Positions 5,768 to 48,606 of a stretch of DNA of 64,000 bases are shown here, piece by piece. The notes beneath the pieces were generated by a model, which did not search any database, was not told where the DNA came from, and worked only from the letters and a program-made list of their open reading frames with translations. Source of the stretch: a bacterium (lineage in GTDB: Bacteria > Patescibacteriota > Minisyncoccia > Sungbacterales > GWA2-42-14); contig JAUSFV010000006.1 in NCBI GenBank assembly GCA_030649305.1, positions 32-64,031 of the forward strand, given 5' to 3'. Positions within the stretch are counted from its first letter, which is position 1. Each line of letters opens with the position of its first letter. Position numbers and translations under genes: made by a program.

Positions 5768-5803
5768 CCTTATCGGCTAATTCGTGCGAATTAGCCGATA
5801 AGG
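5768..5803. repeat. 34-bp palindromic repeat, copy 1
   Basis: CTTATCGGCTAATTCG-TG-CGAATTAGCCGATAAG; identical copies at 13564 and 23689. Confidence 0.95.
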
Positions 5804-13563: not shown

Positions 13564-13597
13564 CTTATCGGCTAATTCGTGCGAATTAGCCGATAAG
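13564..13597. repeat. 34-bp palindromic repeat, copy 2
   Basis: Identical to the copies at 5769 and 23689. Confidence 0.95.
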
Positions 13598-13651
13598 GAA
13601 AAAATAAAAATGGAACTGGTTTAAAAAAATTTTCTATGGTATCCCCAAACC

Positions 13652-13954
13652 ATGGCATGGGAAATACGTGATAAAAAACTGGGCATCTGGTTAAAACCGG
13701 AAGAAGCAATTGAGGCCCTCGAGAAACGACGAGCCGAAGGCGGTCTTACCTTTGACGAAGAAGGCCAGCTCAAAAGCCTTAAAAAGACGCTGGAAGAACG
13801 GGCAAAACAAGATATAAAAATCGCGGAACAACGAAAACGAAATGAACAAAGAATACGAATAGCCGAATCCCCCGAAGCAGTGGCCTGGAAGAAAAAGGCT
13901 GATGCGCTTCGGGAAGACGAAAAAAGAAAACACCCAGGAGGACACTATCTTTAG
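13652..13954 (+). CDS. Small charged helical protein with C-terminal GHYL (candidate proteasome interactor)
   Basis: 100-aa ORF ending HPGGHYL; followed by a hairpin and U-run. Confidence 0.75.
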   Translation: MAWEIRDKKLGIWLKPEEAIEALEKRRAEGGLTFDEEGQLKSLKKTLEERAKQDIKIAEQRKRNEQRIRIAESPEAVAWKKKADALREDEKRKHPGGHYL

Positions 13955-14042
13955 AAAACTTCGATCTCAATCGGAGTTTTCTTTTTTTCTTATGTGTGCT
14001 ACGAATACAGCACGAACCTTAAAAAAATAAGGAGGGAAAACA

Positions 14043-23688: not shown

Positions 23689-23722
23689 CTTATCGGCTAA
23701 TTCGTGCGAATTAGCCGATAAG
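23689..23722. repeat. 34-bp palindromic repeat, copy 3
   Basis: Identical to the copies at 5769 and 13564. Confidence 0.95.
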
Positions 23723-37574: not shown

Positions 37575-38432
37575 ATGAATATTCCAGCAGAGTTTAGAAA
37601 CTTCTCACCATCTTCACTACTTGAAACACCCGAACTCCAAAACTTTATCAAAAATCGTCAAGCCGGACTGAATGAGATGCCTCGTGACATTCTTGAGAAA
37701 ATGGCGGGAATCATCCGCAGTTCCACCGTGCTCACGGGCATCACGTTTGATGGCGGGGTTATCGCGGGCGCCGATGGGCAGTCAACCGATACACGGGGAC
37801 TTGAAATCGCTGATGACCAAGCCCCGAAATTGCACCAGGTGGCGCCACATACCGTTATCGGCATGACGGGCTCGTCCGCCCAATGCGATGAACTAGCGCG
37901 AATCATTGAAGAGGTGCTACGCGTTGATGAAGCAATCAATCAATTCGCAGACACCCCCCTTACCACAGAAGGCACCGTAGGAAGAGTGTCTATGGTAGTC
38001 AGACAAAATCTTCCTCTCGTCGCCTACTATGGCCTTATCGCCATCCCCCTCCTTACCACCATCAACAAGGAAACCGGGGAAGGAAAGGTGTATCATTACG
38101 ATGCCGTGGGAGGATATTCTGACGCCACCGAAGGATTTTGGGCTGATGGTTGCGGGGGCCCGAATGCGAAAGGAATATTCCGAGGAAACACAAAAGATAT
38201 TGCGAAGGGACTTTCAAAAGACGCCGCCATCATGCTTACCGTACACGCGCTCGCAAAGACATGCCATGTCAATGCCGGATGCGGAGGTAAGCTCCTCGTA
38301 AAAGTCATCACCAAGCAAGACGGCATCGTTGATGTATCTCAGGACCGAATCGCGGAAATCTGCAAAGAACTCGGTCCGCGGGTGATCGGAACATATGGCC
38401 TTGGATACCCCTACGCAACCCCCAGGGAATAG
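37575..38432 (+). CDS. prcB: 20S proteasome beta subunit with propeptide
   Basis: ~50-aa propeptide, then T1VLTGITFDGGVIAGAD17, K33 equivalent, VRQNL, GLIAIPLL, YDAVGG; aligns by eye with actinobacterial PrcB. Confidence 0.88.
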   Translation: MNIPAEFRNFSPSSLLETPELQNFIKNRQAGLNEMPRDILEKMAGIIRSSTVLTGITFDGGVIAGADGQSTDTRGLEIADDQAPKLHQVAPHTVIGMTGSSAQCDELARIIEEVLRVDEAINQFADTPLTTEGTVGRVSMVVRQNLPLVAYYGLIAIPLLTTINKETGEGKVYHYDAVGGYSDATEGFWADGCGGPNAKGIFRGNTKDIAKGLSKDAAIMLTVHALAKTCHVNAGCGGKLLVKVITKQDGIVDVSQDRIAEICKELGPRVIGTYGLGYPYATPRE

Positions 38433-38444
38433 GAGGAAAAAATC

Positions 38445-39236
38445 ATGAGACTGTTCCCGGAAAGCGACTATCAATCAAAATCGAACCGAGACAGGTTCGA
38501 ATCGCTCAGAGGCATAATCGAAAATCAACCGCCCCTTGTAGCACTTGCGTATAAAGAAGGACTTTTATTCATGAATTTCGGCACACGACATGATTTCCGC
38601 CGAATTGCTCCGCTCAACGAAGGGAATACCTTAGTATTCGGAGGCGTTGGCAACCGAGGCGATATAAAGGATCTCCACACGAATGGATGGGTAAACCCGG
38701 CAATGCGCCGCCTCTATGCGTGCCTCCCCAGCAATTCAAAAGAGATATCGGGGCGCGTCATTAGCGACGGAATCGCGGATCTTATGCGTTCACGATTTAG
38801 CTTTGTATTCTCGGGACCTTTCATCGCCGAAATTTTCATTGCAGAAGTCGGAGAATCAAATAACGTTATCTACCATATCCAGACCGACGGAAACACATGT
38901 ACCCACGATGATTTCCTCGCGTTGGGAGCCAGAAACTACTGCGCCAATAATCCCCTCCGTTTAAGAGTCGTGAGAAGCGCTGTGGACTCAAGTGTGGGGA
39001 CACAAATCCAAGAAGCAAAGGAAAAAATTGAACTGTGCGCGATTGAACAATACCTTGAAGAGAATCCGCCAAACCCCTCTCAGAGCCTTGAAGAGGCGCT
39101 GAAACTCGGTGATGTTTTGAAAGAATTCTATGTCCGAGAAATCAGCGGAGAGGAAGATCCGGAAAAGACAAAGATGCCTGTTAGCTACAACATTCTCGAA
39201 AGAGGAAAGGGGCTCTTTGTCCATTCAGACAAATAA
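38445..39236 (+). CDS. prcA: 20S proteasome alpha subunit (divergent)
   Basis: RDRFESLRGII...LVALAYKEGLLF, FGGVG, ISGR, PFIAEIFIAEVG; directly downstream of prcB. Confidence 0.82.
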   Translation: MRLFPESDYQSKSNRDRFESLRGIIENQPPLVALAYKEGLLFMNFGTRHDFRRIAPLNEGNTLVFGGVGNRGDIKDLHTNGWVNPAMRRLYACLPSNSKEISGRVISDGIADLMRSRFSFVFSGPFIAEIFIAEVGESNNVIYHIQTDGNTCTHDDFLALGARNYCANNPLRLRVVRSAVDSSVGTQIQEAKEKIELCAIEQYLEENPPNPSQSLEEALKLGDVLKEFYVREISGEEDPEKTKMPVSYNILERGKGLFVHSDK

Positions 39237-41534: not shown

Positions 41535-43151
41535 CTATACTCCATCCGGAAAACGAACGCGTTGAAACGCCCCCGGATTCGGATCAAACGGATCCTCATC
41601 ATATTCGGTAACGACATCGGGCGACCAACCCCTTCCGGACTTAGGATAATATCTGAGATAATTCCAGCCCACTTCCATAAGATCCGCGTTCGTATGCCCC
41701 CGGAGTGCTGCAATCCTCTTATCCCGCGCTTCCGCGCGCGTTCCCGAAGGAGCATGATTTTTCGCGTGCAGAATCTCCGATTCCGAAACAATCAACGCGA
41801 CAAGCCCTTTTTGTACGAGTTTATAATACAGACCCTTATCGCGCCGCACATCATGAAAAAAATTATCAAAAAACTTCATACGGCCCCATGCATCCGTTTT
41901 GCTCGTAGTTCCGCTTTTCGTAATAATTTCAAGCGGGAGTATCGGAGCGCTTTCAAACGAATATCCGTTTCGTTCCATGTCGGGCAGAATCCAGTAATGC
42001 AATTTCGCGGCCCACCCGACGTAGGGCGCTAAAATTTCCGCGCATTCGAGGGGAGAGCGCGCCCGCTCAAACGCTTCAATCAAAAAAATATATTTTTGAA
42101 GGCCGTCCTCTTCCTCGTTGCTCCAGAGAACCGGGGAACCGCTCCGCGCCGCCTCCCGAAACAGCGATGCCTTGTACGCAAGAATCGGCTCAAGATACAG
42201 CTTCCGATGCAAACGTACCGCGTCATACTCCTCATTCTGAAAACGAAATGTTTGATGCTCGCTTCCCCACCACATAGTCCGTGTTTGCATGTATGCCAAT
42301 TCGCGCGAAAAGCGCCCCGAGTCTTTTTTATAATCCTCTTTGCGAAGCACCCGACCCTCAATCATGCGAAGCAGGATCCCGAGAATCACGTTGGGTACAT
42401 ACATCTGCCATTCGCACATTGATGAATCAAGACCGATAATCTGAAGGCGCCAGTACTCGCGGCGGTCCGCAAGCGGCTCATCGCACAAAAGCACCATGGG
42501 GCGCATTGGTGCCGTGGATGATGTTCCCGAAAGCCGGTCCACAAACGGAGCGCGCTGGGAGAGCGAATACAAAAGACGCCCCCCATTGGTAACCCATACC
42601 AGCCCCGACCCCGTCATCCACGAGCTTGAAAAAAGAAACGGACCGAGAATGGGTAATGCCTCATCATAGGACACTTCGCGAATATTCAGGGGAAGATTAT
42701 AGTGATTCCCCCACGAAACATAGTGCGTACGAGAACGATAATCCCGGGTGTCCGGAGACCAGCGTTCGGAATTCATGTTGGTATTATTTTTAAAAAACGT
42801 ACAGCCCCCGAAACGCGCGAATTTGGCACGAATGCGCGATGCGGGCGATCCCTGTATATTCAGCGTTGCGGCAATATCCTCAAGAATACGCTCGCCCGCT
42901 TTTCCCCATGCAACAAGGTCGTAGACACTTCCGCATTCGGGAGTCGAAATTTCAAAATGATTTCCGGTATCCCAATATGCCCGTCCGCCGTTTGCGAGAA
43001 AATCTGATTTTACGGGAAGAATCCGCGCCCCATCCCTCATCTGCGGCCGCAAGGATTCCACGGCGTCATGAAGTTTAGCCCAATTATCCCCAAAAATTTC
43101 CATCGGAAAAAAAGCGGTTTCGTTCTCCATACCCCAGATACGCTTTTGCAT
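41535..43151 (-). CDS. pafA: Pup--protein ligase
   Basis: MQKRIWGMENE, FLANGGRAYWDTGNHFEISTPEC, AGERILED, FKNNT, SQRA, WAAK. Confidence 0.88.
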   Translation of the reverse strand: MQKRIWGMENETAFFPMEIFGDNWAKLHDAVESLRPQMRDGARILPVKSDFLANGGRAYWDTGNHFEISTPECGSVYDLVAWGKAGERILEDIAATLNIQGSPASRIRAKFARFGGCTFFKNNTNMNSERWSPDTRDYRSRTHYVSWGNHYNLPLNIREVSYDEALPILGPFLFSSSWMTGSGLVWVTNGGRLLYSLSQRAPFVDRLSGTSSTAPMRPMVLLCDEPLADRREYWRLQIIGLDSSMCEWQMYVPNVILGILLRMIEGRVLRKEDYKKDSGRFSRELAYMQTRTMWWGSEHQTFRFQNEEYDAVRLHRKLYLEPILAYKASLFREAARSGSPVLWSNEEEDGLQKYIFLIEAFERARSPLECAEILAPYVGWAAKLHYWILPDMERNGYSFESAPILPLEIITKSGTTSKTDAWGRMKFFDNFFHDVRRDKGLYYKLVQKGLVALIVSESEILHAKNHAPSGTRAEARDKRIAALRGHTNADLMEVGWNYLRYYPKSGRGWSPDVVTEYDEDPFDPNPGAFQRVRFPDGV

Positions 43152-43229
43152 GCAATCTCCTCTTTGATAAAGAACCAACCTGCTTTCACAATATCAGAAT
43201 CGGCGCATAAGGGAAATATTGACAAAAAA

Positions 43230-43305: not shown

Positions 43306-43521
43306 TTATTCTCCGCCCCGCTGAACGTAGCTCTTCACAAATTCTTCAGCGTTTTCTTCCAAAACTTCATCAATTTCATCCACTAAATCATCCAAATCCT
43401 TCTTTAATTTTTCGGTCTTTTTCTTTTTCTCTTCCTCTTTCGTATCGTCTTTTTTTGGAGTTTCCTCAACCTCTTTTTTCTCTTCGGGTTTTTCTTGTTT
43501 CTTCTTTTGTTCCTGACTCAT
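43306..43521 (-). CDS. pup: Prokaryotic ubiquitin-like protein Pup (C-terminal GGE)
   Basis: DLDDLVDEIDEVLEENAEEFVKSYVQRGGE; charged, disordered N-terminus; GGAGG RBS. Confidence 0.97.
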   Translation of the reverse strand: MSQEQKKKQEKPEEKKEVEETPKKDDTKEEEKKKKTEKLKKDLDDLVDEIDEVLEENAEEFVKSYVQRGGE

Positions 43522-43607: not shown

Positions 43608-45257
43608 CTATTCATCATATTCAGGATACGGAGTACGATGGACAGAATAAATGCTTCCGCATTTTTTCGCAATACCCGCGCCAAGCGCACGCCGCAAAAA
43701 TTCATGCCGATCCGCGCCGAGAAGAAGTGGTGCATACTCCGCTTCGGTCATCAGAGGATTTGAACAATCAATTTCATAATATGCGTTTTCCTCCGGAACC
43801 CACACGTCTATCTCCGCCCAATGCCATCCCTGCACGTGCGGCTCAAACAAACGCTGTACCGCGACCTGAAAGCCGGAGCGCGTCGGCGGGGATTCAGAGA
43901 CCGCGCGCGCGATATCGGCATCGCTAATAATCCGATGCTCCCGATGCTTTTCTTGAACGAATTTTTGAAAAAATATGCTTTTTGCGGGGTCGATATTTCC
44001 ATAGCTCCGGTCAAGGCTGATTGCTTTATGCGAACAGAAAGAATCAATCTTGCCGCGCGCCATCAATTCCTCTATGACACCGCGTTTCGTCACCCAATCC
44101 AACATCCCGATACAATCACCGGAATTTCTCCGAAGTTTTTTAACAACATCAAGCCCGAGCGCCACCGCTTCATCATACTCGGGTTCCCGAATACCATACT
44201 CCGCACAATACCTCCCCATAAGCGTTATATATTCTTCAAGAAGATCAAGGGGTAAACAGGATTCTTTGCGATTTCGCATAGAAATTTTTTCTTGAAACGC
44301 GAGGTCCCGCGAAATCTTCCAAAACGCTCTCACGGGATCCGTCAGTATAAACTGACCGCCGAGAAATTCGTCCTCAAGCATCTTTAAATGAATTTCGGTA
44401 AGGGCAATCGTAAGAAAATAGGCGGTCTCACACATGTTTTGATCTGCTGTAATCACATGCAGACGGCGATACAGCGCTGCATCCGCATACGGCACGTCGC
44501 GCGTATTCATTAGGGGCCGTTTGCTTAGTGTGGGATATGTCTCCCCTAGTCCCATCGTACCGATGCCCGCCAACTCCGAAAAAAAATCCGCGCGCTGAGA
44601 AATCTGGAAGTCGCACCACGGGAGCCCCGTCACAAGCCGATTATGGCTTCCCACCTTTCCTTGGCCGTTAAAAATCTGACGGAGTACGAGCCACGGAATC
44701 GTACGTTCAATCAAGGCGCCCCACGGCACGACACGCCGCATAAGATAATTATCATGATGCGCATAGCTTACCGAAAAATCGGCGAGCAGCTCAGGAGATA
44801 CATCAAGAAACGTTTCCCCGCGGCCCAGCGCAAAACCATAATTATTTTTTGATAACAAAAAACCGGTTCCCGCTTCGCGATGGCGTTCTGTCAAAAACCG
44901 TATGATGCGGTCAGCAGCTTCATAGTGCGCGAGTTTCTCTTTGGGTGTGCGGCAAAGGGCGATTGAGAGTTCCGGATGCGCCCCGTCCACATACAATCGC
45001 GCGCCATTCGCAAGAAGAATATTTGTTTCGCGCCACGAGCGTTCCGTAAAATAGGTATGGCTATGATCTTCCCCGTCCGCAAGGCGCGGCCGCGAATCCC
45101 ACAAAGAAAAACTTCCGCCCGAAAGCCACTCGGGCCTGATACGCGACACAAACTGCCACGCGAGATCAGCGGGACTCTGTGAAGAATCCGGCGAACTGAT
45201 CCCATATTCTATTTCGCTTCCCCCATATTTTGGTATCGAGCGCGATTCACGGGGCAT
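43608..45257 (-). CDS. dop: Depupylase/deamidase Dop
   Basis: GSEIEYGI, LANGARLYVDGAHPELS, GQGKVG, FQISQRADFF, NTRD, YRRLHVI, LDWVTK. Confidence 0.9.
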   Translation of the reverse strand: MPRESRSIPKYGGSEIEYGISSPDSSQSPADLAWQFVSRIRPEWLSGGSFSLWDSRPRLADGEDHSHTYFTERSWRETNILLANGARLYVDGAHPELSIALCRTPKEKLAHYEAADRIIRFLTERHREAGTGFLLSKNNYGFALGRGETFLDVSPELLADFSVSYAHHDNYLMRRVVPWGALIERTIPWLVLRQIFNGQGKVGSHNRLVTGLPWCDFQISQRADFFSELAGIGTMGLGETYPTLSKRPLMNTRDVPYADAALYRRLHVITADQNMCETAYFLTIALTEIHLKMLEDEFLGGQFILTDPVRAFWKISRDLAFQEKISMRNRKESCLPLDLLEEYITLMGRYCAEYGIREPEYDEAVALGLDVVKKLRRNSGDCIGMLDWVTKRGVIEELMARGKIDSFCSHKAISLDRSYGNIDPAKSIFFQKFVQEKHREHRIISDADIARAVSESPPTRSGFQVAVQRLFEPHVQGWHWAEIDVWVPEENAYYEIDCSNPLMTEAEYAPLLLGADRHEFLRRALGAGIAKKCGSIYSVHRTPYPEYDE

Positions 45258-45371
45258 ATTTCCTCCCCTTTCTTTATATGTATATATGTAAAGCAACTTA
45301 TTTCATGCTATCACGGCCACTCCAATGAAAAAAGCCCACGACCTCGGTCGGGGGCTTTTGGATGTAATGAG

Positions 45372-47351
45372 TTATAGGTAATGTCCGACCGAAACTGTCT
45401 CAACTTTCTTATCCTCCCCTTCTCGGGGAAGAATACGAACATTCACGATTCGGCCCTTCTGCTTGCCGATAACACTGGCCCACTCTTGGGGGTTCGTAGT
45501 GTTAGGCAAGTCTTCGTTCTCTTGGTATTCTTTAATCGTCGCGTCACGAAAATCAGAGAATGTCAGCCCCTTCTTGCCTCCCGCAATCAATCGTTTGACC
45601 GCGCTTTTCTTTGCGCGAGTCATAATGGACTCAATGATAGCGCCGGACATAAAATGCCGGAAGTGCATGGTTTCCTGTTTCCCATCCGCATAGGTAAGTT
45701 CGACAAATCTGCTCCATTTTTTAGAATCAGGGGTAAGCCCCCAAATTTCAATCGCGGTCCGCTGAATAAAATATTTTGCCATATCCTCCAAAAGAGGGGT
45801 GCCGTTTGTATCACGACGAATAGGAAACTTCATGATTTTGAGGTCAACATCATTTCGCGCATCATTCGTGGGGTCGCAATCGTAAAACTTACGCGGATGT
45901 CCGTTACGGTCTGCCGGAATATAGTTTCCCTCTGTATCATAGAATTTCGGATTCACATAATCAGAACCAACAAGACAAAATGGAAGTTCCGGCACGCAAT
46001 AAATCTTGAGAATTTCCTGAATGCCGCGAAAATCAGGACGGTCAATTTTAATTTTTACGTCAAATCGTCCGGGCCGCAGAACCGCAGGGTCAATCAAATC
46101 CTGCCGGTTGGATGCACCAATCACGATGACGTTTTTCAAACCCTCAACACCATCAATCTCCGCCAAAAACTGCGGTACGATGGTTGACTCAACGTCCGAA
46201 GAAATTCCCGAACCGCGCGTCCGAAACAAACTGTCCATTTCGTCAAAGAAAATAACGACGGGAGAGCCGTCTCCTGCCTTCTCACGCGCCCGCGTAAAAA
46301 TATCACGAATTTTACGCTCGGTTTCACCAACCCACTTCGTAAGAAGTTCCGGACCTTTGATATTAATAAAGTAACCCCGAACGGATTGTCCCGTTTTTGC
46401 GGCAATCTGTTCGGCCAGAGAATTCGCAACCGCCTTTGCGATAAGTGTTTTACCGCATCCCGGAGGACCATACAACAGTACGCCCTTGGGCGGTGCCAGT
46501 TTGTGTTCCTTGAAATGTTCCGCGTAGAGATAGGGAAGTTCAAGCGCGTCGCGAATTTCTTCAATCTGTGCCCCAAGTCCGCCGATGTGCGCGTAGGTAA
46601 TATCCGGCACCTCCTCCAGGAGGAGGTCTTCGGTATCACTCTTTGGAAGCTTCTCAAGTACGAGACCTGAGCGCGCGTCAAATAACAGATGGTCGCCCTC
46701 TTTCAGAACGACGTCTTTCAAAGAATCCGCAATCTCAACAACCCGCTCCTCATCCTGACGCACTTCAATCTGCACACGCCCATCATTCAGGCGGCTTTTC
46801 ATCGTGACTACTTCGCCCTGCCCGTCAAAGCCAAGCGCCTCAACCACATTGAAGGCCTCATTCAAAATAAGTTCCTGGCCCCTCCGAAGAGACCTGCCGT
46901 CAAGAGAAGGATGCAGATTAACTTTCAACTTTCTACCCGCCGCATAAATAACGGCTGTGCCGTCTTCATTCAACAAAGAAAAAATACCGTAAGAATTAGG
47001 AGGCGCTGAAAGCTTTTCCACTATCTCGCGGAGTTCCACGATCTCTTTTTTCACTTCCTGCAAGATCTCGGTGAGTTTCTGGTTTTGAGCAAAAGCCGTT
47101 ATATTTTGTTCAAGCAACGGCTTTTCCAATCTTGCTAATTCTTGCTCCTGCGCCACAATCTGTTCGCGAATCCGCTCGGCCTTTTCCAAAGTATCGCCCC
47201 GGGCATCCGCGCGTTTATGCAGTCTTCTTAATTCCGCGTGAAGTTCTTGAAGTCGTATATGAATCGCGTGGAGCTTCGCGCCAAACGCGTCAAGCGATTG
47301 ATTGCGCGGATCTTCATTCGGCATACGCCACCTCATTTCGTCTGTCAACAA
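45372..47351 (-). CDS. arc: Proteasome-associated AAA+ ATPase ARC/Mpa (start may be a downstream ATG)
   Basis: N-terminal coiled coil, OB domains, GPPGCGKT, KGPELLTKWVGETER, FFDEMD, SGISSDVE, NEDLPNTTNP, C-terminal GHYL. Confidence 0.96.
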   Translation of the reverse strand: MLTDEMRWRMPNEDPRNQSLDAFGAKLHAIHIRLQELHAELRRLHKRADARGDTLEKAERIREQIVAQEQELARLEKPLLEQNITAFAQNQKLTEILQEVKKEIVELREIVEKLSAPPNSYGIFSLLNEDGTAVIYAAGRKLKVNLHPSLDGRSLRRGQELILNEAFNVVEALGFDGQGEVVTMKSRLNDGRVQIEVRQDEERVVEIADSLKDVVLKEGDHLLFDARSGLVLEKLPKSDTEDLLLEEVPDITYAHIGGLGAQIEEIRDALELPYLYAEHFKEHKLAPPKGVLLYGPPGCGKTLIAKAVANSLAEQIAAKTGQSVRGYFINIKGPELLTKWVGETERKIRDIFTRAREKAGDGSPVVIFFDEMDSLFRTRGSGISSDVESTIVPQFLAEIDGVEGLKNVIVIGASNRQDLIDPAVLRPGRFDVKIKIDRPDFRGIQEILKIYCVPELPFCLVGSDYVNPKFYDTEGNYIPADRNGHPRKFYDCDPTNDARNDVDLKIMKFPIRRDTNGTPLLEDMAKYFIQRTAIEIWGLTPDSKKWSRFVELTYADGKQETMHFRHFMSGAIIESIMTRAKKSAVKRLIAGGKKGLTFSDFRDATIKEYQENEDLPNTTNPQEWASVIGKQKGRIVNVRILPREGEDKKVETVSVGHYL

Positions 47352-47430
47352 GCTTTTTTTAATGTATCACAGCAAATTCATACGCGCAACTAATTGAAAA
47401 AACGGCTTATTTGTGATATCTTTGGGCAAG

Positions 47431-47502
47431 GCCCCCGTAGCTCAACGGATAGAGCAATCCCGTCCTAAGGGAGAGATGGGAGTTCAATTCTTCCCGGGGG
47501 CA
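47431..47502 (+). tRNA. tRNA-Arg(CCT)
   Basis: GCCCCCG acceptor / CGGGGGC-A, D arm GCTCAACGGATAGAGC, anticodon loop GTCCTAA, T loop TTCAATT; no encoded CCA. Confidence 0.88.
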
Positions 47503-47532
47503 TTGATATGCTATAATACTTGTATTCACATC

Positions 47533-48606
47533 ATGGCTACATCTTACGAACAACAAATTATAGATGCCATAAAAAAAGCCCTCCCCGCGGTGGTCAGTAT
47601 TGTGGTAAGTAAAGACCTTGAAGATATTAAGAAGAGTAACCCCTTCGGATATTTTCAGCTTGGCCAGGAAGCTCCCGCAGGAGAAGAAATTCCGGAATCG
47701 GCACTTGATGAGCTCCCGCGCACGAAAGAAGGAAAAATCAAAGTCGGCGGCGGCTCCGGCTTTATTGTTTCACACGACGGACTCATTTTGACAAATAAAC
47801 ACGTCGTAATGGACCCAAGCGCTGAATACAGCATTATTACCGCAACTGATGACCTCTATCCCGCGCGCGTACTCGCGCGCGACCCGATTAATGATGTCGC
47901 AATTCTCAAAATTGAAGCGGAAAAAGAAACCTTGCCCGTCATTCCCATCGGCGACTCAAATACGGTAGAACTTGGACAAAGCGTCATTACCATCGGAACG
48001 GCTCTCGGCGAATTCCAGAATACCGTCTCCACCGGCATTGTATCAGGCCTCTCGCGATTTATCACCGCCGTCACGGATTTGATGGGCCATCAGGAACGCC
48101 TGCGCGGCCTTATTCAAACGGATGCCGCGATTAACCCGGGAAACTCTGGGGGGCCCTTAGTGAATTTAAAGGGTGAGGCCATTGGCATTAATTCGGCTGT
48201 GGTATTTGGCGCGCAAAACATCGGCTTTGCCATTCCCATCAATAAAGTAAAAGAAGACCTTGATGCCTTTCGTAAATTCGGAAAAATCTCAAAACCCTTT
48301 CTTGGCATCCGCTATCTTTTGATCAACAAGGCCATCCAGAAAAAATTCAACCTGCCCGTTGATGCAGGCGCCATGATCCTGCGCGAGCACGGACCGGATT
48401 CGCACGGCATCGTTCCGGGAAGCCCCGCCGAAAAAGCTGGCCTCAAGGACTACGATATTATCCTCGCGTGCAACGGCAAGCTCCTCTCAGAAAAAACGAC
48501 CCTGGAAGATATCCTGGATTCGGTTGCCATCGGCGACACGGCTTCGCTCACCATCCTCCGAAACGGAAAGGAGGCTGAATTAAAAATGATGGTAGGAGAG
48601 CGGTAA
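47533..48606 (+). CDS. HtrA/DegP-like serine protease with PDZ domain
   Basis: GSGF, TNKHVV, DVAILKI, TDAAINPGNSGGPL; no obvious signal peptide. Confidence 0.95.
   Translation: MATSYEQQIIDAIKKALPAVVSIVVSKDLEDIKKSNPFGYFQLGQEAPAGEEIPESALDELPRTKEGKIKVGGGSGFIVSHDGLILTNKHVVMDPSAEYSIITATDDLYPARVLARDPINDVAILKIEAEKETLPVIPIGDSNTVELGQSVITIGTALGEFQNTVSTGIVSGLSRFITAVTDLMGHQERLRGLIQTDAAINPGNSGGPLVNLKGEAIGINSAVVFGAQNIGFAIPINKVKEDLDAFRKFGKISKPFLGIRYLLINKAIQKKFNLPVDAGAMILREHGPDSHGIVPGSPAEKAGLKDYDIILACNGKLLSEKTTLEDILDSVAIGDTASLTILRNGKEAELKMMVGER

Follow-up and report, generated by a model that had tools for sequence, protein, structure and literature searches.

Does a small protein that ends like a proteasomal ATPase act on the 20S proteasome of its own cell? 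The question is raised by a stretch of 64,000 nucleotides from a Patescibacteria-type genome (the window), in which an ORF on the forward strand (13652-13954) encodes a 100-aa protein with the C-terminus ...KRKHPGGHYL-stop. ARC, the Mpa-type ATPase encoded on the reverse strand of the same window (45372-47351), ends ...VSVGHYL-stop, and the last four residues of the two proteins are identical, as a preliminary description of this DNA had noted. Known bacterial proteasome partners are few (Mpa/ARC, Bpa and Cpa), and a soluble 12-kDa protein whose docking tail is under selection would allow a cheap direct test for small competitors or tethers.

The 100-aa protein, its family and its tail

The gene for the 100-aa protein is real. 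It shows a dN/dS of 0.24 over 99 codons relative to L012 (1167 bp), the one close homologue with DNA, and it has its own terminator, as had been claimed: an intrinsic-terminator-like hairpin followed by a T-run (13953-13982, forward strand), with a similar hairpin kept behind the L012 gene. A possible extended -10 element lies 6 nt before the ATG (13637-13645, forward strand), at a spacing that is also kept in L012; it was not called in a promoter scan of the window, and no ribosome-binding site precedes the ATG. With low confidence, we suggest that the transcript is leaderless and starts from this element. The gene is flanked by a gene of the mannitol dehydrogenase family and by a gene for a 254-aa protein of unclear family. 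Contigs from four DNA runs contained the gene, as well as one diverged variant that is in frame but does not span the tail, and no RNA dataset was listed as containing the gene. A separate feature of the region is a perfect palindrome of 34 bp (13564-13597), which lies 54 bp ahead of the ATG. It has three identical copies in the window (the others at 5769-5802 and 23689-23722) and none in shuffled sequence, and similar short elements occur in many contigs of the runs examined.

The protein had been called an orphan. It is indeed unannotated, with no Pfam family at E≤1 and no NCBIfam family, but a small family exists. A search with the single sequence gave three matches, three were found among 1.84 billion representatives, and a profile gave nine; with one cluster member added and two longer start variants excluded, ten sequences were aligned. 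Relatives were also found at one or more loci from 600 metagenome stretches, in none of 458 candidate stretches of genome_contigs and in none of 353 of viral_contigs. The close homologues are 96-100 aa long and the aligned sequences are 41-93% identical in pairs. Despite there being only 18 invariant columns out of 100, Gly, Tyr and Leu at positions -4, -2 and -1 from the C-terminus are invariant in all ten sequences, and the family thus keeps a G-[QHN]-Y-L ending throughout, position -3 being Gln in eight, Asn in one and His in one. Between the 100-aa gene, where the GHYL codons (residues 97-100) occupy 13940-13951 on the forward strand, and L012, the Gly, Leu and stop codons of the tail differ synonymously. 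Together, these comparisons indicate that the G-x-Y-L tail is kept by selection.

Within the genome the ending is rare. A scan of C-termini returned G[HQ]Y[LVIM] for two of 1488 non-overlapping ORFs of at least 40 aa, the 100-aa protein and ARC, and for three of 7943 ORFs in all frames. The number of G[QHN]YL endings expected among the 1041 ORFs of at least 80 aa is 0.018; this figure is post hoc, and the conservation of the tail is the stronger test. The preliminary description went further and proposed that the protein is matched to the local GHYL variant, and this is not supported. His at position -3 is confined to this genome's copy, and eight of the ten homologues end in GQYL, the actinobacterial form. 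The evidence does not show a tail tuned to the local ARC, since the ARC tails of the order (n=11) are GHYL in three cases and GQYL in six, and since the Gln in the middle of GQYL is described as not essential in the available text of PMC12288473.

The protein is highly charged (25 Lys and Arg, 21 Asp and Glu, pI 9.4) and is predicted to be helical, both as had been anticipated. The AlphaFold2 model, built from the ten sequences (mean pLDDT 74.6, pTM 0.44), has a short N-terminal β-hairpin, a helix at residues 16-29, a turn, helices at 34-70 and 74-93, and a free tail at 94-100. The protein therefore models as a helical hairpin plus one helix, not as a Bpa. The heptad pattern is weak, with hydrophobic residues at half or fewer of the a/d positions in the two main helices, and there is no hydrophobic lining. 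Foldseek gave no match in the PDB at E≤0.001, and a sequence search of the PDB matched designed coiled coils only. The best scores in a wide structural search were Z 7.2, for a designed protein, and Z 5.9, for YnzC, both no higher than is usual for common helical arrangements. YnzC (UPF0291/DUF896) has a helix-turn-helix similar in size to that in the first 60 residues of the 100-aa protein (TM 0.49; 14% identity; rmsd 2.3 across 51 residues), and there is no Pfam match; scores of this size do not support homology. ESM Atlas gave no usable feature match for the 100-aa protein or for the ~200-aa GQYL family described below.

The Pup-proteasome set of the genome

The genome (1.02 Mb in 54 contigs, 94.7% complete) carries genes for ARC, Pup, Dop and PafA-like ligases, together with two pairs of prcBA. 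On the reverse strand of the window are ARC (644 bits against the NCBIfam proteasome-ATPase cut-off of 505), a Dop-like protein (43608-45296; PF03136, with TIGR03688 best but under its cut-off), a Pup-like protein ending GGE (43306-43521; TIGR03687, above cut-off) and a PafA-like ligase (41535-43178; PF03136, with TIGR03686 best but under its cut-off). On the forward strand are a proteasome β-subunit (prcB, 37575-38432), with Ser at the usual Thr1 position (SST start), and a divergent α-subunit (prcA, 38445-39236). Among the window's genes, ARC and Pup thus pass the NCBIfam cut-offs, and the Dop-like, PafA-like, prcB and prcA products score below them. The profile of Bpa, PF10759, had no match anywhere in the genome. 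The prcB-prcA pair (37575-39236) begins 23.6 kb from the 100-aa gene, in agreement with the earlier estimate of ~24 kb, and no synteny was found between this gene and the proteasome genes.

Several other genes were noted. A third gene of the Pup-ligase family lies on contig C36 (25358-26725), distant from the Pup locus, and the relatives G002-G005 carry several Pup-ligase paralogues, often beside rpsL or pepA. A DegP/HtrA-like protease gene, recognised by sequence motifs, is divergent from arc (47413-48606). At the arc-dop-pafA loci of six relatives (L133, L134, L140, L142, L143 and L115), the same gene for a protein of ~520-550 aa adjoins, often together with recG.

The second prcB-prcA pair is outside the window, on contig C33 (22081-23578; L117:1363-2860). 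Its β-subunit has a canonical HGTT start and its α-subunit is 212 aa long; the pair is ~50% identical to that of the relative G018, and a mltG-like gene adjoins both. From their sequences, the two pairs represent two types of 20S. A profile of 13 α-subunits from CPR bacteria matched the solved mycobacterial PrcA at E 1e-21. According to the available part of 10.1101/249060, R26 and K52 of mycobacterial PrcA bind the Tyr and the carboxylate of GQYL. At the equivalent positions, in an alignment of low identity, the C33 α-subunit has Lys and Lys and the window α-subunit has Asn and Arg. The C33 α-subunit is thus the better candidate receptor, as it has Lys at both tail-gripping residues.

Tails and proteasomes in related genomes

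The tail had been expected to occur together with the proteasome, and this was borne out only in part. This genome has the full Pup-proteasome set, but G026, which holds the only firm tailed homologue with a genome, has no 20S subunit match; the comparison covers the wider family, the nine close homologues being without usable genomic context. The G026 genome is a single contig of 923 kb, 100% complete, with an arc(GQYL)-dop-pup-pafA locus (L115), further ligase paralogues and a 197-aa protein ending GQYL. An unfiltered six-frame search of it with profiles of 29 β- and 20 α-subunits reached E 0.37 at best, where the same β-profile detects several α-subunits at 1e-4 to 1e-13. Pfam was also applied to 150 of its 164 unexplained ORFs of 160-340 aa, and none of the 150 belonged to a proteasome family. 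The unfiltered search covered G026, and the other genomes are drafts of 82-100% completeness; in a filtered search of drafts with a 23-sequence β-profile, one of 15 relatives was matched, and this was the positive control. Across the order, a Pup ligase was found in 21 of 61 genomes and PF00227 in 5 of 62, two of the five being unrelated proteins. At the level of the class, a four-sequence β-profile matched 26 of 401 genomes.

The distant homologues were found by profile, the single 100-aa sequence having found nothing in 60 relatives. When a profile without the tail was used, a 63-aa ORF of G026 scored best of 5478 ORFs (E 1.4e-5). In leave-one-out tests, also without the tail, two ORFs were firm: this one, at E 1.4e-7, and one of 86 aa in G016, at E 1.5e-4. 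Each is flanked by nifU and a ferredoxin gene. The G026 homologue, from a genome with Pup ligases and ARC, lacks helix 3 and ends AAGYL; the G016 homologue, from a genome (99% complete) in which Pup ligase and ARC were unmatched, is tail-less and retains the N-terminal hairpin. A further GQYL-stop, located 56 nt after the G026 gene, lacks a start codon and was attributed to chance. Two further ORFs of the nifU position are assigned to the family by synteny only, a 74-aa GQYL ORF in G004 (E 3.5) and a tail-less look-alike in G043 (E 2.4-24), and similar ORFs in G009 (QGYL) and G013 (GNYL) show motif likeness only, at E 9-12. With these four downgraded as members, a table of tail against Pup system (5/5 versus 0/2, p 0.048) overstates the association and was not used. 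In a search of the 401 genomes of the class, real matches came only from this genome, G009, G016 and G026, and the query alignment had already included three of these four; eight weak matches were dropped as located in long ORFs, and no family member was found outside the order. The nifU-ferredoxin gap itself (L231-L260; 30 nifU loci examined, gene end located in 29) is a variable slot that holds toxin-antitoxin-like pairs, a GIY-YIG-like ORF or members of the 100-aa-protein family.

The tail also occurs on other proteins of the order. In genomes that lack a 20S match, eight of ten ARC-like ORFs end in G[QH]YL, the others being one SYL and one truncated ORF. Apart from ARC, G[QHN]YL-stop was found in 62 genomes on 12 ORFs that looked real, as judged by their length and by there being no longer overlapping frame; these came from 11 genomes, nine of the 21 with a Pup ligase and two of the 40 without (p 0.0006, a value overstated by kinship). 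Six of the ORFs form a helical family of ~200 aa (L194:8258-8866, L195:7094-7702, L085, L030, L065 and L072), in which GQYL is invariant across six genomes at 16-55% identity. A 20S match was found only in G018 among these genomes, and in two of them neither Pup ligase nor ARC was matched. The model of this family is confident (pTM 0.76) and has no fold match in the PDB at E≤0.001. Kinship with the 100-aa family was rejected, as only the tail aligns, and this genome has no member; the ~200-aa family is a candidate Bpa analogue or a client of another receptor. Three AAA+ ATPases other than ARC also end in GQYL (L057 in G005, L059 in G003 and L062 in G004), in genomes with Pup ligases and without a 20S match. 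To judge from these sequences, the tail is selected across several families, with a loose tie to the Pup system and a poor one to the 20S. The 20S genes may be unrecognisable or absent from the drafts; if not, there is a second receptor for the motif.

Possible roles and known systems

We favour the reading that the 100-aa protein is a small, tail-dependent and ATP-independent partner of this cell's own 20S. Binding to the 20S is, on the sequence evidence, somewhat better than an even prospect, and the mechanism in full comes close to even without quite reaching it. The Tyr and the terminal carboxylate would insert into the pocket between two α-subunits, the same one that ARC uses. With few tails per particle the gate would not open, and the protein would occupy pockets and compete with ARC, or would tether a client through its charged helices. 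A role as blocker or tether specifically is tentative and, taken alone, rather unlikely. Its small size and the lack of a four-helix bundle or of any sign of a ring nevertheless argue, if less strongly, that the protein would offer too few tails, which makes these roles more plausible than a gate-opening ring. They gain from what the available parts of two sources report, namely that a PafE ring bearing six tails fails to activate (10.1101/249060) and that tail-bearing Bpa competes with Mpa (PMC4254994).

Several results support the favoured reading: the tail conserved in a diverged family under purifying selection and with synonymous change in its codons; ARC as the only other protein of the genome to share it; the full Pup-proteasome set with no Bpa match; the residues of the α-subunit pocket; the tail present in the Pup- and ARC-positive G026 and missing in G016, where neither was matched; and the excess of other G[QHN]YL ORFs in Pup-ligase-positive genomes, although kin are not independent. 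The lack of synteny with proteasome genes opposes it, and so does the failure of the tail to track the 20S, as seen in G026, in eight of ten ARCs and in the ~200-aa family.

The latter results are what would be expected if the tail docked on a receptor other than the 20S, with the 20S here optional or one of two receptors. G[QHN]YL would then be a general docking code on at least four unrelated families (ARC, the other AAA+ ATPases, the ~200-aa helical family and the hairpin family of the 100-aa protein), read by a protein that most genomes of the order would possess and that is not a recognisable 20S, and the 100-aa protein would be one small regulator among the users of this code. To the tails that occur without a detectable 20S (eight of ten ARCs, five of six ~200-aa members, three AAA+ ATPases and the G026 homologue) is added the scarcity of PF00227 relative to Pup ligases in the order. 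No candidate receptor turned up, however, GQYL has a single receptor in print as far as the sources at hand go, and the search without filters was of one genome while the rest are drafts. A Lon-type protease was rejected as the general receptor; it was found in three of ten genomes tested, is missing here and is present where a tentative homologue is tail-less. We regard such a receptor, and equally such a code, as a serious minority possibility, and tails on several families in genomes where no 20S is detectable would suggest that the motif has a second receptor, or that Patescibacteria possess a protease that cannot be recognised.

The same body of evidence bears on what the protein does beyond its tail. 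By analogy with Bpa, its long helices could form a ring or multimer with many tails and open the gate as a smaller activator. The genome lacks both a Bpa match and a member of the ~200-aa family, and the tail follows the last helix by only seven residues, shorter linkers being reported, in the part of 10.1101/249060 available, to strengthen PafE binding. Yet the model has no four-helix bundle, Bpa was not among the fold matches (which does not by itself exclude it), the weak heptads and missing hydrophobic lining speak against oligomers of this kind, and the firm G026 homologue has just 63 aa; we consider a true activator improbable. The tail-less hairpin of G016 suggests that the body has a function independent of the tail, and this would suit a tail that serves as a built-in degradation signal, the hairpin doing its own job, for example in nucleic acid or protein binding, as a short-lived Pup-independent substrate. 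The loose likeness to UPF0291/YnzC hairpins, which is within the range of common arrangements, and the separate control suggested by the terminator and upstream palindrome fit this too. It is a slim prospect all the same, as GQYL is not reported as a substrate tag in the literature at hand and one tail alone binds weakly by the PafE data (10.1101/249060, available part). Finally, a motif of just four residues might be shared by coincidence or persist as a functionless relic, and HbYX-type ends are given in the accessible text of PMC11475706 for 0.72% of proteins in proteasome-less bacteria. The conservation in ten of ten sequences with synonymous codon change, the low expected number per genome and the loss of the tail in the Pup-negative G016 make this highly improbable, and conservation has already largely refuted it.

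UBact-type systems were reportedly found in Parcubacteria in 2017. We found no literature that links Pup or the proteasome to Patescibacteria, to Parcubacteria or to CPR bacteria, and CPR terms do not occur in PMC8665760. The ProEnd supplement or database could list the 100-aa protein as a motif hit. In the available text of PMC12288473, a 2025 review, nothing is said to be known about how the association of activators with the 20S is regulated.

Among known interactors, the alternative 20S partner Cpa (a Cdc48-like actinobacterial protein) competes with Mpa and is an ATPase without a GQYL tail, according to the available part of PMC8223512; the 100-aa protein has the tail. With Mpa/ARC it shares the last four residues in this genome, but it has no AAA+, OB or coiled-coil homology and no ATP site. 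Bpa/PafE (PF10759) is the closer comparison, and the preliminary description was right that the two are unlike in sequence and size: the 100-aa protein does not match PF10759, which was also not among the matches at E≤10 for P0004, P0005 and P0013, and has 100 aa against the 174 of Bpa, with about 7 residues in its tail linker against 21. The Bpa protomer is a four-helix bundle that forms a dodecameric ring, in contrast to the hairpin plus helix predicted here (pTM 0.44, ten sequences) for the 100-aa protein. Bpa is found only with prcAB, as stated in the part of PMC4254994 available, unlike the firm homologue in G026, where no 20S was matched. What the two have in common is a C-terminal G-x-Y-L tail with a penultimate Tyr on a helical, ATPase-free protein, shared with an ATPase of the same genome, and a gene away from the Pup-proteasome locus, as is given for Bpa in the accessible text of PMC8223512. 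The conserved and, in the model, exposed tail is the feature of HbYX/GQYL-type interactors. Collectively, the sequences describe a small, rare family with a selected GQYL-type tail that is not related to Bpa, and they make the 100-aa protein a good candidate for a new proteasome partner.
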